Part shown: positions 6,412 through 11,829 of the stretch, one piece after another
Numbering within the stretch: position 1 is the stretch's first letter
Layout: each line of letters begins with the position of its first letter
IMG/VR virus record: IMGVR_UViG_2802429248_000008
Location: 1-26,841 of that record
DNA from: a virus
Lineage: Duplodnaviria; Heunggongvirae; Uroviricota; Caudoviricetes
DNA: 26,841 bases
Strand: one strand, 5' to 3'
Program-made: the position numbers and the translations under genes
Notes under the pieces: model-generated
What the model was told of the DNA's origin: nothing
The model's database searches: none
Seen by the model: the letters and a program-made list of their open reading frames with translations, nothing else

Positions 6412-6972
6412 ATGCATAACTTCAAACTCAAACCAATGGGTACACCTGGTGTGGCTCCGGCACATGTAAAACCATGGACACAACAGGAAGATGAAATGCT
6501 TATCTCGCTTTATCCGGAGTGCAACACGCGCCAGATAACCGAACAAATTCAACGAACCCATGACGCAGTTATGCACCGACTTAGTTTTTTACGTGATCGT
6601 GGATTGATTGGTCGCAAGAAAAAGACTCTGAGTGCAAAGGAGATCGCCTTTCTCATTGAAAACCGCCACACCAGAACGGCGCAGGAACTGGCCGCCGAGG
6701 TGGGATGCACCCATCGCACCGTACAAGCGCACCTGAATAAACGTGGTTATAGCCTGCGAAAATGCGGAGAACTCCACCACCTGACCAGATACAGCGATCA
6801 CCTGGTGGAACTGGTGACTGAACTACGTGATGAGCAGCACATGACGTTCGCCATGATAGCAAAACACATTAATCACACACTGCAAATAAAAGTCACCACT
6901 CGTACAGCACGTTTTCTTTACGGTCGCCGCACCGCCGCCGACGCCGTGCTGTACGAGCTATTACCAAACTGA
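6412..6972 (+). CDS. DNA-binding protein with an N-terminal SANT/Myb-like motif and repeated HTH-like units
   Basis: 186 aa. WTQQEDEMLISLY is Myb-like. Three HTH-like segments follow: TRQITEQIQRTHDAVMHRL, TAQELAAEVGCTHRTVQAHL and TFAMIAKHINHTL. Confidence 0.6.
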   Translation: MHNFKLKPMGTPGVAPAHVKPWTQQEDEMLISLYPECNTRQITEQIQRTHDAVMHRLSFLRDRGLIGRKKKTLSAKEIAFLIENRHTRTAQELAAEVGCTHRTVQAHLNKRGYSLRKCGELHHLTRYSDHLVELVTELRDEQHMTFAMIAKHINHTLQIKVTTRTARFLYGRRTAADAVLYELLPN

Positions 6973-7092
6973 GTAATCATCATGCACACACAAAAAAACC
7001 GCTTGCCATGCCGCAATCAGTCAGGTTACATTTCCGCTGCACCTCATAAAACGGGTGCCGGGATTCTCAACCTGCTGACAAACGAAGCGCAC

Positions 7093-7113
7093 AACCGCGC
7101 CAGCGGTTTTTTT
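7093..7113 (+). terminator. Rho-independent terminator inside the non-coding gap
   Basis: AACCGC (7093-7098), loop GCCA, GCGGTT (7103-7108), with a T run extending to 7113. Confidence 0.6.
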
Positions 7114-7154
7114 GTGCGTACTGTATTGCCACGTCTTTTTCGCATCAGAATTAT

Positions 7155-7235
7155 GGTGGGGCGTACGGGGCCGACTTCGGTCGGGCCGGTTTCTTCGTTT
7201 GCCGGTGTTGAGAACCCCGTACGTCTCGCCACCCC
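7155..7235 (+). ncRNA. Candidate structured antisense RNA with c4-like (P1/P7 immI-type) architecture
   Basis: Perfect 9-bp stem 7162-7170/7215-7223 and outer 5-bp stem 7155-7159/7229-7233. Inner hairpin CCGAC-UUCG-GUCGG (7171-7184). Second hairpin 7185-7190/7201-7206 with a 10-nt loop. The loop and the single-stranded 7207-7214 are complementary to duplicated targets at 7063-7087 and 7240-7284. No credible ORF is present. Confidence 0.55.
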
Positions 7236-7295
7236 GAGATTCTCAACTCTGGTTGGTGAGTATCCAAAAACTCACAAACGAAGAGGCCAAACACC

Positions 7296-7526
7296 ATGGC
7301 AAACCGCAAACAGCACCGCGCTATCGCGGAGCGTCGTCACATCCAGACTGAAATCAACCGCAGACTTTTCCGCGCATCACGCGTCGCGCAGATCATGCAC
7401 ATCAATATGCTGCATGAGCGCAGCCACGCGCTATCGAACATCTATTCAGCCTCTATTTTCAGCTATCTGGCGGATGATCTGCGCGAGCTTCAGCGGCTCA
7501 TCCTGCAGCAAAACAAACTCCATTAA
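7296..7526 (+). CDS. Small basic protein; likely target of the antisense RNA (occupies the position of Icd in the P1 module)
   Basis: 76-aa ORF. Its GAAGAGG SD (7280-7286) is overlapped by the 10-nt target CAAACGAAGA (7275-7284). Confidence 0.6.
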   Translation: MANRKQHRAIAERRHIQTEINRRLFRASRVAQIMHINMLHERSHALSNIYSASIFSYLADDLRELQRLILQQNKLH

Positions 7527-7598
7527 TTCTGGTTCCGGGCCTTTCCTGCACCTTGCGGCGGGAGGCCTTCGCACATCTGTAACAAGAGGATTGCCGCA

Positions 7599-7964
7599 AT
7601 GATTCTCGCCAACGACTTTCTTGAATACCTGCTCAACACAGAGCGCGATCTTGCCGTTCGCGTGCGTGACCGTTATGACATGTACCTGAAATCCCTGCCT
7701 GTACCGCAGCTCGCTGACGGAAAGATTGTTATTGATGGCCGCTACATGATTGACAGCCACGAGGGAAATTACAGGCTTTACCGCATTGAAGGCGGCACCC
7801 CGTCCGTTATTGGCATTTACCAGCGCCCATCCTCTGCGATCGTCGATGTGATTGCAGACAGCATCCGCATCACACATCGCTATGCCGACACAGAAGACAC
7901 CGTGCTGGAAATTCAGCGGCTGGCTGCCGTTTGCCGTGACACCCTGAACGGTATGACGAAGTAA
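7599..7964 (+). CDS. Hypothetical early protein upstream of the replication gene
   Basis: 121-aa ORF with an AAGAGGA SD 9 nt upstream. Confidence 0.6.
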   Translation: MILANDFLEYLLNTERDLAVRVRDRYDMYLKSLPVPQLADGKIVIDGRYMIDSHEGNYRLYRIEGGTPSVIGIYQRPSSAIVDVIADSIRITHRYADTEDTVLEIQRLAAVCRDTLNGMTK

Positions 7965-7970
7965 ATCAGT

Positions 7971-10793
7971 ATGACGACAGAGTACATCAGGGACTGGCAA
8001 CAACCGCGCCACGCAGTAGGGCGTGAAGGAACGGGGATCCCCGCACCTGAATCCGCGCTTTCCTCCTGGCTGGATGCCTACCGGGCAGAGAACGAGCGCC
8101 GCCAGGAAAAGGCTGATGCGGTGTTCTCCGCCACGCCACTGGGCAACCTGATTAATAAAAGCCTGGACGCACAGGAAAAACAGGACAAAACCATCACTCT
8201 GGCAGGAGAAGCCAGAAGACAGGCACGCGGCGCGGTGGATGAAGCCATGGCCTCGCTGCGCCTGCTGCCGTCCTATCTGCGCGATCCGCTTATTCGCCAC
8301 CTCTCCTTCCTGCGCAAAAAACAGGAAGCCGATCGCCGGAAAGGCAAAAAGAGCTGGCAGGCAGAACGCTATGCACGCGGAACCCTGCGCAAGATATTCG
8401 ATCGCATTAACCGTGCCGACAGTCGCTGGCTGACACCGGGTTATCGCTCCCTTGCCGGACGCGAACGCCTGGACGATTTGCTTTACCTGCCGCAGCTCAA
8501 CAAACACCAGATACAGACGCTGGCCACCATGACGGCGGCGATGTTCAGCAGCACCTTCGAAAAACTCTGCGATGGCTTTGGCGCGACTGATGGTGAGCTG
8601 ACCATGGAGGTGGCACTGAAGGCGTATCAGATGCTGGCCCGCATGGCGTTACACCTGCACACCGTGCCGCCGCATTACGAAGCGCTGACAACAGACAAAG
8701 ACCGGAGGAACGAACCGGACACGGAGCTGCTGCCGGGCGCAATCCTTCGTCTGACCTGTGCGGAATGGTGGAAACGCAAACTGTGGCTGTTACGTTGCGA
8801 GTGGCGGGAAGAACAACTCCGTGCCGCCTGTCTGGTTTCCAGAAAAACATCGCCCTATCTGAGCCAGGACGCGTTAAGCGAGTTTCGCGCACAGCGCGAG
8901 AAAACACGCGATTTTCTGAAAAGTTTCATGCTGGAAAACGAAGACGGGTTCACGATTGATCTCGAGACAGTGTATTACGCGGGAGTAAGTAACCCGGTTC
9001 ACCGTAAGGCAGAAATGATGGCCACCATGAAGGGGCTGGAACTTCTGGCCGAAGCCCGTGGCGACAAAGCGGTGTTTCTGACTGTCACCTGCCCGTCAAA
9101 ATACCACGCCACAACAGAGAACGGTCATCCGAACCCCAGATGGAACGGGGCCACCATGCGCGACTCCAGCGATTACCTAGTTAACACGTTTTTTGCGGCG
9201 GTCCGCAAAAAACTGAACCGCGACGGTCTTCGCTGGTATGGCATCCGCACGGTGGAGCCTCACCATGACGGCACTGTGCACTGGCATATGATGGTCTTTG
9301 CACATCCGGAAGAAATCGACAGCATCGTGGCCATCACCCGCGATATTGCCATTCAGGAAGACCGCCACGAGCTGGGCAATGATATTACTCCGCGCTTTAA
9401 GGTGGAGTATGTCGACGGCTCAAAAGGCACACCGACCAGCTATATCGCCACCTACATCGGAAAAAACCTGGACAGCCGCGCCGTGGATGGCATCGACCCG
9501 AAAACGGGCAAGCCACGCGTTGACCACGAAACCGGAAAATCAATGGCCGAGAGCGTGGAGCGCGCCATCGGCTGGGCGCGCCTTCACCGCGTCCGCCAGT
9601 TCCAGTTCTTTGGCATCCCCTCCCGTCAGGTGTGGCGTGAACTGCGCCGCCTTGCCAGCCAGATGGCACGCAACCCGGAAGGCCCGCAACGGCTGAAGGA
9701 TGACGCAATGGATGCGGTACTCGCTGCCGCTGATGCCGGGTGTTTTGCCTCCTACATTGAAAAACAGGGTGGCGTACTTGTTCCACGCAAGGACTACCTG
9801 ATTCGCACCGCCTACGACCTCGCAGATGAGCTGAACGATTACGGCGAACAGGGCGTACAGATTTACGGGATCTGGTCACCACTCATCGGGGAATCCTCCC
9901 GTGTGTGCACGCACCCGGATAACTGGAAGCTGGTAAGACGTAAACCGGAACAGGAAGGTAGCGCCCACGAAAATGGTTTTGACCTTCAGGGCGGCCCTGC
10001 CGCCCCTTGGACCCGTGGCAATAACTGTCCCCGTGTACAGGAAACGGACAACAACGGGACAGAACAGCCGGAAGAACGGCCAGCACCGTGGCCGCAGCTT
10101 CCTGACGGCATTGAAGTGAACGAATGGATGCGCTCACTGAAACGGCACGAACGCCGGGCGCTGATGCGTTCGCTTCGTGACAAACAGGCAAAAAACAGCA
10201 GTGATGAAATGCAGAGCTGGACACAGAGCCGCAAACAGCAGCGGCCTTTGCCTGATAACCACGAATTACTCGCTAGAGAATGGCGGGAGTCTGCTGAATC
10301 TCTCGGCCTGCATATCGGTGAACAACAAATGCAGCACCTGTTACGGGGCGGCAGTCTGTACGTTGACGGCAGCATCATTGCACCGCAGGGATTTGAAATT
10401 GTACGCAAACCGGATACCCGCCCGGACAGCCGAATCACGCAGCTCTGGCAGCGCCTGAGCCGTAATCACGGTGTAAGCAGCACGGAGATCCGCCATAACC
10501 CGGTCGCCAGCTATCTGGCACAGCTGGGGGCATCAGACCCTGAAGCCGCCGCACGCCTGGCATCCACACTTCAGCAGGACCAGAACACCATGAAAACACC
10601 CGTTACCGTGCTTTCTGACATGCTGCGCGCCATCCGCGACGCAGAGCACGCACAGAGAATCAGTGAAACCACTGAACGCGCCCACCGCAAAGCAGACCTG
10701 CTGCGGGGTGGCCTGACCAGTGGAAACAAAAAACAGACAGAAACGGGACTCACGAATCCCGTAAATGAGCAAAAAACGCGCAGCGATATATGA
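7971..10793 (+). CDS. A: Rolling-circle replication initiator endonuclease (P2 gpA family), C-terminally extended
   Basis: 940 aa. HUH motif HHDGTVHWHMMVF at 9261-9299. Paired catalytic tyrosines YIATYIGKN at 9441-9467. Positioned as P2 A. Confidence 0.9.
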   Translation: MTTEYIRDWQQPRHAVGREGTGIPAPESALSSWLDAYRAENERRQEKADAVFSATPLGNLINKSLDAQEKQDKTITLAGEARRQARGAVDEAMASLRLLPSYLRDPLIRHLSFLRKKQEADRRKGKKSWQAERYARGTLRKIFDRINRADSRWLTPGYRSLAGRERLDDLLYLPQLNKHQIQTLATMTAAMFSSTFEKLCDGFGATDGELTMEVALKAYQMLARMALHLHTVPPHYEALTTDKDRRNEPDTELLPGAILRLTCAEWWKRKLWLLRCEWREEQLRAACLVSRKTSPYLSQDALSEFRAQREKTRDFLKSFMLENEDGFTIDLETVYYAGVSNPVHRKAEMMATMKGLELLAEARGDKAVFLTVTCPSKYHATTENGHPNPRWNGATMRDSSDYLVNTFFAAVRKKLNRDGLRWYGIRTVEPHHDGTVHWHMMVFAHPEEIDSIVAITRDIAIQEDRHELGNDITPRFKVEYVDGSKGTPTSYIATYIGKNLDSRAVDGIDPKTGKPRVDHETGKSMAESVERAIGWARLHRVRQFQFFGIPSRQVWRELRRLASQMARNPEGPQRLKDDAMDAVLAAADAGCFASYIEKQGGVLVPRKDYLIRTAYDLADELNDYGEQGVQIYGIWSPLIGESSRVCTHPDNWKLVRRKPEQEGSAHENGFDLQGGPAAPWTRGNNCPRVQETDNNGTEQPEERPAPWPQLPDGIEVNEWMRSLKRHERRALMRSLRDKQAKNSSDEMQSWTQSRKQQRPLPDNHELLAREWRESAESLGLHIGEQQMQHLLRGGSLYVDGSIIAPQGFEIVRKPDTRPDSRITQLWQRLSRNHGVSSTEIRHNPVASYLAQLGASDPEAAARLASTLQQDQNTMKTPVTVLSDMLRAIRDAEHAQRISETTERAHRKADLLRGGLTSGNKKQTETGLTNPVNEQKTRSDI

Positions 10794-10869: not shown

Positions 10870-11829
10870 ATGAAAATTTGTATCGACGACGGCTCCACCA
10901 ACATCAAGCTGGCATGGACTGAGAACAGCGAACGCCGCAACGCCATCAGCCCGAACAGCTTCAAGTCGGAATGGTCTGCGCCGTTCGGTGGCTCGCAGCC
11001 TGCGAACTACATGCTTGATGGCGTGCGCTATGGTTTTGATCCGGTCAGCGATCGCTTTGTCCAGACGACCGACACGCAATACCAGTACAGCGATGTGAAT
11101 GTAATCGCCATTCACCACGCGCTGGTCAAATCAGGCATCACACCACAGGAGGTGGATGTGGTTGTCACCCTGCCACTGAGCGAGTATTTCGACACAAACG
11201 CACAGCCGGACATGGCCAACATCAACCGCAAAAAAGCGAACGTTATGCGCCCGGTGGAGTACCAGAACGGTGAGGCATTCACTATCCGTAACGTGCGGGT
11301 TATGCCTGAATCCATTCCGGCTGGCTTTAAAGCACTGGCTGACATGAGTCCGTTTGAATCCCTGCTGATTGTGGATTTAGGCGGAACCACGCTGGATGTG
11401 GCAAAGGTTCAGGGACAACTGGCAGGTATCAGCCAGGTGTTTTGCGATCCACACGTAGGCGTTTCCCTGATGGCCGATGCCGTACTGTCGGTGATGGCCA
11501 CTAACGGTATGCGTACCAGTCACCACATCGCCAATACCATTATCGAACATCGCCATGATGAAGCCTGGCTGCGCCAGCACATCCACAATGACGCGCATTA
11601 CAACAGCCTGATGGCGGTTATTCGTGAAAAGGAAGAAACACTGAAACAACGCGTGATCCGCGCGCTGGCGGGTTTTTCGGGTTACGGGCGGGTGATGGTT
11701 GTCGGTGGAGGGGCGGAGATTGTGGCACCCGCTATCCGCGAAGCCTGCGGAGTTAATGCGACTTTCATCGCGGACGGGGTGCCACAGTTTGCTCTGGTTA
11801 ATGGGCTGTACGCAATGGACAAGGAGTAA
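10870..11829 (+). CDS. parM: ParM/StbA actin-like plasmid segregation ATPase
   Basis: 319 aa, aligning along its whole length with my recollection of R1 ParM. Shared segments include IDDGSTNIKL, YSDVNV-A-HHAL, VMPESIPAG, DLGGTTLD, GGGAE and LVNG-Y. Confidence 0.9.
   Translation: MKICIDDGSTNIKLAWTENSERRNAISPNSFKSEWSAPFGGSQPANYMLDGVRYGFDPVSDRFVQTTDTQYQYSDVNVIAIHHALVKSGITPQEVDVVVTLPLSEYFDTNAQPDMANINRKKANVMRPVEYQNGEAFTIRNVRVMPESIPAGFKALADMSPFESLLIVDLGGTTLDVAKVQGQLAGISQVFCDPHVGVSLMADAVLSVMATNGMRTSHHIANTIIEHRHDEAWLRQHIHNDAHYNSLMAVIREKEETLKQRVIRALAGFSGYGRVMVVGGGAEIVAPAIREACGVNATFIADGVPQFALVNGLYAMDKE

Follow-up and report, generated by a model that had tools for sequence, protein, structure and literature searches.

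The DNA analysed here, called the window throughout, is a stretch of 26,841 nucleotides (positions 1 to 26,841 of IMG/VR record IMGVR_UViG_2802429248_000008). It belongs to a P88-like phage (Xuanwuvirus, Peduoviridae) of the P2 family and shares ~93% identity with phage P88 over bases 6980-8000. Its genes include those for a P2-C-type repressor, a Phage_GPA replication initiator and ParM, and its structural module is of the complete P2 type (portal, terminase, GPO scaffold, P2 capsid and baseplate). When the whole window was scanned with Rfam, just two matches reached gathering level, C4 and isrK, and both lie in the gap 6973-7295. Downstream of the gap are a 76-aa ORF (ORF76), ORF121 and gpA. 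Directly upstream, an ORF at 6412-6972 encodes a 186-aa HTH DNA-binding protein that varies among relatives, being missing from P88 and just 57% identical in relative L003. Conserved sequence of the cassette described below starts at ~6985-6990, right past this ORF. The features of the region, in window coordinates, are:

7003..7032, + strand: promoter-like site (TTGCCA, 18-nt spacer, TACATT) from a consensus scan, predicted start ~7039
7039..7113, + strand: IsrK-like short RNA, the P4 seqA equivalent, carrying a1/b1 (Rfam isrK)
7039-7058, + strand: hairpin 1 of the IsrK-like RNA
7064-7071, + strand: a1, in the loop of IsrK-like hairpin 2
7079-7087, + strand: b1, unpaired in the Rfam consensus structure
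7093-7113, + strand: intrinsic terminator of the IsrK-like RNA (terminator scan)
7149..7236, + strand: C4/CI-type antisense RNA (Rfam C4, fold, stem covariation)
7154-7170 with 7215-7231, + strand: C4 closing stem, 17 bp
7171-7184, + strand: C4 hairpin 1 (CCGAC-UUCG-GUCGG)
7185-7206, + strand: C4 hairpin 2, with b' in its loop (7192-7201)
7207-7214, + strand: a', single-stranded segment of the C4 RNA
7240..7247, + strand: target a2 (TTCTCAAC), complement of a' (exact over 8 nt; covaries with a' and a1 in at least five a-types)
7275..7286, + strand: target b2 (CAAACGAAGA, 7275-7284), overlapping the Shine-Dalgarno sequence (exact over 10 nt; covaries with b' and b1)
7296..7526, + strand: gene for an ε-like 'derepression protein' of 76 aa (Pfam PF25738, BLASTP to P4 ε)
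7599-7964, + strand: ORF121 (downstream context; no family match)
7971-10793, + strand: gpA replication initiator (Phage_GPA, 432.7 bits; 30% identity to P2 A)

Two RNA families and their paired targets

Rfam C4 (RF01695) matches 7149-7236 on the plus strand with 79.2 bits, against a gathering threshold of 45, and the match is full-length (1-87 of 87). Scores in P88-like relatives range from 76.8 to 81.1 bits. The minimum-energy fold of 7149-7236 (-48.6 kcal/mol, z = -4.67) equals the Rfam consensus, and none of 200 shuffled sequences was as stable. The original prediction, made from the letters of the window, described a compact fold at 7155-7235 with a 9-bp closing stem, a CCGAC-UUCG-GUCGG hairpin and a second hairpin. 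The fold and both hairpins are present in the minimum-energy structure; the closing stem has 17 bp instead of nine.

Stem covariation was examined in 49 diverse C4 sequences, where 95.5% of the stem cells are paired, compared with at most 50% in slid controls. Double, compensatory changes occur in 14 stem pairs of this set, including 9 of the 17 closing-stem pairs and 4 of the 5 pairs of hairpin 1. Past the closing stem a CACC is conserved, which is compatible with excision as an RNA of ~77-80 nt. The C4 RNA of P1 and P4 is a stable species of ~77-80 nt that is cut from a longer transcript, its 5' end being generated by RNase P. The prediction had named a search with the Rfam C4 model and stem covariation in homologues as its checks, and both came out in its favour. 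Together the Rfam scores, the stem covariation and the three-way target covariation given below bear out the identification as a c4-type antisense RNA whose a/b targets are duplicated.

The second match, Rfam isrK (RF01394), covers 7039-7113 on the plus strand with 62 bits (gathering threshold 50). The isrK architecture is present: a pair of 5' hairpins, a stretch of single strand, and a terminator hairpin followed by a U-run. Instead of standing alone as a target site, the upstream a1/b1 element lies within an IsrK-type RNA. With the Rfam c4-a1b1 model (RF03163), 6900-7400 yielded no match at E up to 10, and P4 scores 44.1 bits, slightly under the gathering threshold of 46.7; in the window it is the isrK model that covers the a1/b1 element.

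The predicted start of the promoter-like site at 7003-7032, ~7039, coincides with the 5' end of the isrK match. The site agrees with the consensus at 9 of 12 positions, in a scan that found two sites against 1.3 expected by chance, and it may act as the promoter of the IsrK-like RNA. The other promoter-like site, at 7126-7154 (TTGCCA, 17-nt spacer, AATTAT), would place its start inside the 5' stem of C4. It is probably a chance match, since AUUAUGG belongs to the conserved C4 consensus.

The C4 RNA is complementary to sites on both of its sides. The loop segment b', TCTTCGTTTG (7192-7201), has an exact complement at 7275-7284 (10 of 10 nt), a site that overlaps the Shine-Dalgarno sequence of ORF 7296, as had been described. 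With G-U pairs allowed the b':b2 duplex reaches 12 contiguous pairs. Likewise, the 9-nt upstream pairing claimed for b' is found, at 7079-7087 (b1). The single-stranded a', GTTGAGAA (7207-7214), is matched by exact complements at 7240-7247 and at 7064-7071; the prediction had the first of these sites right and placed the second at 7063-7070, one base off. It also extended the upstream pairing to 11 of 12 nt with 7059-7070. By reading of the sequence this holds solely against 7208-7219, and as such a duplex occupies 3' bases of the closing stem, the stem would have to open. The order of the target pairs upstream and downstream of C4 is mirrored relative to b'/a' in the RNA, as proposed, with exact matches of 9, 10, 8 and 8 nt.

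Each of the a/b motifs occurs nowhere else in the 26.8-kb window. When the flanks were shuffled 20,000 times, single matches were reached in 0.02-0.46% of the shuffles and all four together in none. The Shine-Dalgarno sequence GAAGAGG (7280-7286), followed by an ATG at 7296, is overlapped by b2. In predicted folds a local hairpin already sequesters it in part, so that regulation may be more complex than plain occlusion of this site.

Covariation and specificity types in relatives

To collect relatives, viral contigs were scanned with a pattern, and a second scan used the conserved ORF121 as its anchor; together they gave more than 200 loci. The P88-like set comprises 85 loci, 68 with the module (53 unique sequences) and 17 without it. 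A contig scan based on ORF76 returned only three loci, because patterns from a single protein recover close relatives only. All eight of the tested P88-like loci of other specificity types match both C4 and isrK above gathering (isrK 59-72 bits), and the three cassette-less relatives tested match neither model.

Among 42 unique C4 loci of various kinds, a locus's own b' and a' are complemented in its own flanks in 76-98% of cases, compared with 4-13% in cross-locus controls. The 68 P88-like loci contain 18 distinct (b', a') types, built from roughly five a-types and about a dozen b-types. In 51 of the 53 unique P88-like sequences a change in the RNA segment goes along with changes in both its upstream and its downstream target, and all four duplexes are kept. 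Across types the duplexes measure 9 bp for b':b1, 8-12 bp for b':b2 and 7-8 bp for both a':a1 and a':a2. The variation sits in six patches only (a1, b1, b', a', a2 and b2), with 0.58-0.91 bits (a1 0.58, b1 0.91), whereas mean entropy over the same 53 sequences is 0.09 bits in the promoter, 0.02 in the terminator and 0.13-0.20 in the stems. This pattern is what selection for divergent antisense specificity leaves behind when the scaffold stays fixed. The RNAs of the gap genuinely belong to an already known type of phage antisense-RNA immunity system, carried in this case by a phage of the P2 family.

Two loci depart from the three-way match. In L189 (2444-2700; IMG/VR 2565956729_000013) the b' loop, CTGTAGTTG, is unpaired with its own b1/b2, CAACCAAAG. 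It is the sole P88-like cassette whose b' is mismatched to its own targets, and this b' is identical to that of L143, a co-resident P88-like prophage with the same genome id. The mismatch may reflect gene conversion between co-resident cassettes or an immunity-escape recombinant. The second exception, L160, has a hybrid a1 (ATTCTCACCC, equivalent to window 7059-7072) that forms 4 bp with its own a', and its a2 is intact. Prophages that reside in the same genome differ in a or b type in all three informative pairs, a very small number of pairs.

The ε-like gene and the systems it resembles

ORF76 matches the Pfam Derepression family (PF25738) with 31.2 bits (cut-off 27), where P4 ε scores 170 bits, and by BLASTP it is 30% identical to P4 ε (E = 8e-9). 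Judging by this identity and by the 4 bits over the Pfam cut-off, the homology to P4 ε is modest. The ORF is intact in 52 of the 53 unique relatives, with a conserved core, and it is C-rich and G-poor (C/G 1.51, compared with 1.04-1.20 in neighbouring genes). The prediction had called its product a 76-aa basic protein. Derepression is the only family that the protein matches, which makes it a P4 ε homologue rather than an analogue of Icd or an anonymous leader peptide. NCBIfam gave no match for ORF76, ORF121 or gpA.

Homologues of ε inactivate repressors of the P2 C type. The repressor encoded in the window is a P2 C homologue (39% identity, E = 2e-23). By count on the alignment it keeps the threonine equivalent to T67 of P2 C, mutation of which abolishes binding of the P4 anti-repressor; I70, a second residue of P2 C tied to the P4 interaction, is not conserved by the same count. 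The homology of ORF76, the P2 C homologue in the window and the retained T67 equivalent suggest that ε would act on the C-type repressor. Since ε homologues inactivate such repressors and this phage has one, the cassette is most likely an RNA-gated anti-repressor switch with a hypervariable immunity specificity of its own, and the ε-like gene is most likely its directly gated output.

The cassette behaves as a unit among relatives. In 17 of the 85 P88-like loci the IsrK-like RNA, C4 and ε are absent as one block, and ORF121 and gpA are ~97% identical. These loci fall into nine unique sequences (L162, L164, L168, L179, L184, L188, L196, L200 and L207). They carry a winged-helix (MarR-like) gene instead, and the last ~40 nt of ε remain, which marks a recombination or deletion boundary inside ε. 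Because the two RNAs and ε are jointly present or absent, promoter, IsrK, C4 and ε make up one cassette, and because gpA is kept in cassette-less relatives, gpA does not need it. ORF121 and gpA lie outside the cassette and are possible polar targets. In the immI architecture to which the prediction likened the locus, icd is translationally coupled to downstream genes; here the ε stop lies at 7526 and ORF121 starts at 7599, with no overlap. ORF121 has its own AAGAGG ribosome-binding site and begins 72 nt after the ε stop, and so is not classically coupled. The 72-nt spacer (7527-7598) has an entropy of 0.05 bits and is kept even in cassette-less relatives, likewise at ~97% identity; a GC-rich hairpin within it, at ~7537-7568, folds no better than shuffles (z = -0.35).

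What the sequences themselves show is that the RNAs belong to these families, that they fold, pair and covary as described, and that they are gained and lost with ε as one cassette. We put at roughly 0.7 the probability that 6990-7526 of the window is a self-contained cassette of the IsrK-C4 type (P4 seqA/CI/seqC, P1 c4), placed in the early operon and working as an RNA-gated anti-repressor switch.

From P1, P4 and Gifsy-1 we infer by analogy how expression, processing, translational block, polarity and ε activity would follow one another. A constitutive promoter near 7003-7032 would start transcription at ~7039, and most transcripts would end at the terminator at 7093-7113, yielding an IsrK-like RNA of ~75 nt that displays a1 and b1. 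Transcripts that read through, together with early-operon transcripts from upstream, would carry the C4 structure, which would be cut out as a stable RNA of ~80 nt, as in P1 and P4. Its b' loop and single-stranded a' would then pair with a2/b2 on the mRNA, cover the ε Shine-Dalgarno sequence and block translation. Polarity of the Rho type onto downstream genes operates in both P1 and P4. By analogy with P1 icd-ant and with P4, the untranslated, C-rich ε message would here be open to Rho-dependent termination, lowering ORF121 and gpA expression; such a polar effect on both genes is plausible. The IsrK-like RNA itself could take part in repression as a required co-target, the role it has in P4, or could turn ε on by titrating C4 as a decoy, as in Gifsy-1. 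The two experimental precedents assign opposite roles to this upstream RNA. In the fold predicted for the long transcript, a1/b1 are paired in cis with b'/a', which resembles the inactive structure demonstrated by experiment for Gifsy-1 isrK (PMC4825925).

A wider proposal is that P88-like phages carry a mobile RNA-gated ε cassette that acts on P2-C-type repressors and serves as their own induction trigger or as a derepressor of heteroimmune P2-like prophages in the same cell, its combinatorially shuffled a and b determinants (at least 18 types) defining a set of RNA immunity groups. We regard this as less likely than not. If it were true, these RNA immunity groups would be orthogonal to the protein-repressor immunity of P2-like phages, and the helper-derepression and immunity module of P4 would be shared with, or taken from, its helper lineage.

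The nearest homologue is the P4 immunity region, which we compared in the order PLE, seqA, CI RNA, seqC, then ε, orf151 and α. On the minus strand of P4 the same order is found, isrK at 8615-8692 over the seqA region (60.8 bits), C4 at 8420-8507 over the CI RNA (74.9 bits) and then ε. In both elements the ε genes are homologous, a replication gene lies downstream in the same operon and the a1/b1 element ends in an intrinsic terminator. The differences are also clear. P4 is a satellite, whereas the window element is a complete P2-type phage, and its gpA is a rolling-circle initiator where P4 α is a primase-helicase. In the window ε follows C4 directly, with b2 on its ribosome-binding site, whereas in P4 ~245 nt (8176-8419) separate C4 from ε, a stretch that holds the small kil and eta ORFs. 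ORF121 shows no similarity to P4 orf151, and the specificity sequences of the window are unlike those of P4.

The prediction had compared the locus with the immI region of P1/P7 (a1 b1, c4, a2 b2, icd, ant). The c4 architecture with duplicated targets stands, and P4 takes the place of P1/P7 as the closest relative. As in immI, b' lies in a loop and a' is single-stranded, the targets are duplicated with the downstream pair on the ribosome-binding site of the first ORF, and the final output is an anti-repressor. Citron and Schuster are said to have found in 1990 that specificity differs between the related phages P1 and P7. Unlike immI, the window has a first ORF of the ε type in place of Icd, has no ant, belongs to another phage family and carries an upstream target element that matches the isrK model and has its own terminator. 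Gifsy-1 provides the third comparison with isrK, orf45 (STnc1160) and anrP, where IsrK has a promoter and a terminator, read-through enters a C4-like region and an anti-repressor lies downstream (PMC4825925). Alternative cis structures pair part of IsrK with part of C4 in Gifsy-1, and IsrK activates translation there in trans (PMC4825925); in the window such structures are predicted. The host element differs, being a lambdoid prophage, and AnrP is a different anti-repressor. IsrK and C4 have already been regarded as homologues of P4 seqA and CI, and an 'IsrK-C4 immunity system' has been named as common to P4, P1, P7, N15 and some lambdoid prophages (PMC3632133).

Alternative readings, annotation and distribution

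The prediction saw C4 chiefly as a second, RNA-based immunity layer, in which translational repression of a leader ORF, together with polarity, would silence ORF121 and gpA in the lysogen. The cassette does lie 675 nt upstream of gpA in the same direction, both the IsrK terminator and the C-rich ε ORF could attenuate read-through into gpA, and in P4 the homologous system based on CI RNA keeps the replication operon from being expressed (PMC4825925, PMC3632133). Against this stand the 17 of 85 close relatives that lack the cassette and keep ORF121, gpA and the ORF121 spacer and ribosome-binding site; the cassette is gained and lost strictly with ε and not with gpA, and the ends of ε and ORF121 neither overlap nor couple. 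Moreover, C already represses the early promoter in the lysogen, which makes a second lock on gpA needless. We therefore rank an RNA-gated ε anti-repressor above replication immunity, which is unlikely as the primary role and survives as a possible polar effect. According to another proposal, a helper-type phage would use its own copy of a P4-type immunity RNA to hold down P4-like satellites that reside in the same host and would hijack it. Barquist et al. (PMC3632133) suggested that IsrK-C4 in non-satellite prophages might guard against predatory satellites, and the cassette is indeed homologous to the P4 immunity region. In the sampled loci, however, no P88-like b' equals the b' of a P4-like satellite and the a' sets differ too. 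Apart from the two exceptions given above, every P88-like RNA perfectly matches targets in its own cassette, which argues for a self-directed role and leaves an anti-satellite decoy very improbable.

The region could also be thought to encode a protein, the 'ash family protein' or one of the hypotheticals annotated in GenBank/RefSeq, with the RNA features incidental. Mechanically called ORFs do run through the gap, and several are found in database annotation: PGAP assigns the region a pseudogene of an 'ash family protein', and the P88 record has gp13 on the other strand. Frame 6982-7602 (+) weakly matches Phage_ASH with 20.9 bits. This match, the only one to a protein family in the gap, lies under the Pfam cut-off and traces to an obsolete 'cI protein' ORF of P4, where the Phage_ASH match coincides exactly with the CI RNA. 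The substitutions fall into six patches with base-pair covariation, the stems carry compensatory changes, and a 2-nt loop insertion in one allele (L129 and L146) would shift any reading frame. The gap therefore holds no credible ORF, as had been claimed, and a protein-coding origin of these patterns has a negligible probability. An RNA-gated ε cassette accounts for the region best.

The obsolete 'cI protein' ORF, at 8168-8584 (-) in P4 (our locus L004), scores 59.7 bits to PF10554 (Phage_ASH, 'Ash protein family') and covers exactly the CI RNA region. The loci concerned are this one, window 6982-7602 (+) and 1490-1762 in L208. PGAP puts 'ash family protein' pseudogenes on IsrK-C4 RNAs, and genuine P4 ε matches PF25738 instead. 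PF10554 is thus very probably a translation of this RNA locus. A survey of P4 satellites equates Ash with ε, and a likely spurious family has in this way served as an ε marker in satellite surveys (PMC8628076). In our sample all P4-like loci carry C4, and an ε homologue is present in one, which is near-identical to P4 itself.

Candidate signals for induction and for plasmid replication were also considered. A search for LexA boxes found only one CTGT-N8-ACAG site, inside gpA and at chance level, and none near the cassette; SOS control of the cassette is therefore unsupported. P88 was recovered following mitomycin C treatment. A ParM-type segregation ATPase is encoded at 10870-11829 of the window, and the neighbouring P88 gene is annotated as a partition protein. 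A plasmid lifestyle would have favoured control of replication as the role of the cassette. Plasmid records matching the cassette region number only 19, mostly large replicons, plus one phage-sized record of 34.5 kb. The latter, the E. coli 'plasmid' record NZ_CP148288.1 (34,461 bp), matches 61% of window 6990-8000 with 91% identity and could be a P88-like element maintained as a plasmid or an assembled replicative form.

None of the records inspected annotates the cassette as RNA, and some give a hypothetical or "ash family" protein. Our literature search found no description of the module in P88-like or other P2-type phages, and the accessible part of the P88 paper does not mention it. The regulatory principle itself is already known from P1, P4 and Gifsy-1, and we consider the locus of moderate interest, for a satellite's module in a helper-type P2-family phage, for its combinatorial specificity diversity and for its abundance, with no RNA annotation in the inspected records. 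The cassette ties the immunity and derepression module of the P4 satellite to its helper lineage. It offers a testable explanation for anti-repressor control in P2-type phages, a family in which induction mechanisms differ between lineages. Its near-invariant stems and at least 18 types also make it a natural library of orthogonal antisense RNA/target pairs on one scaffold.

The module was not found in phage P2. The cassette is present in ~1,160-1,180 of 5,426 complete E. coli genomes (~21%), with at most four copies per genome and ~1,350 copies altogether. By distant BLAST, 160 phage records contain the module; ~90 are Stx-converting lambdoid phages and nine are P88-like. One 56-kb metagenome viral contig (3300045988_113976) carries two C4 copies of a single specificity type, L107 (~11483-11570) and L115, whose b', TTTCTTCGTTTA, almost equals that of the window, although the surrounding genes fit neither a P88-like nor a P4-like element.
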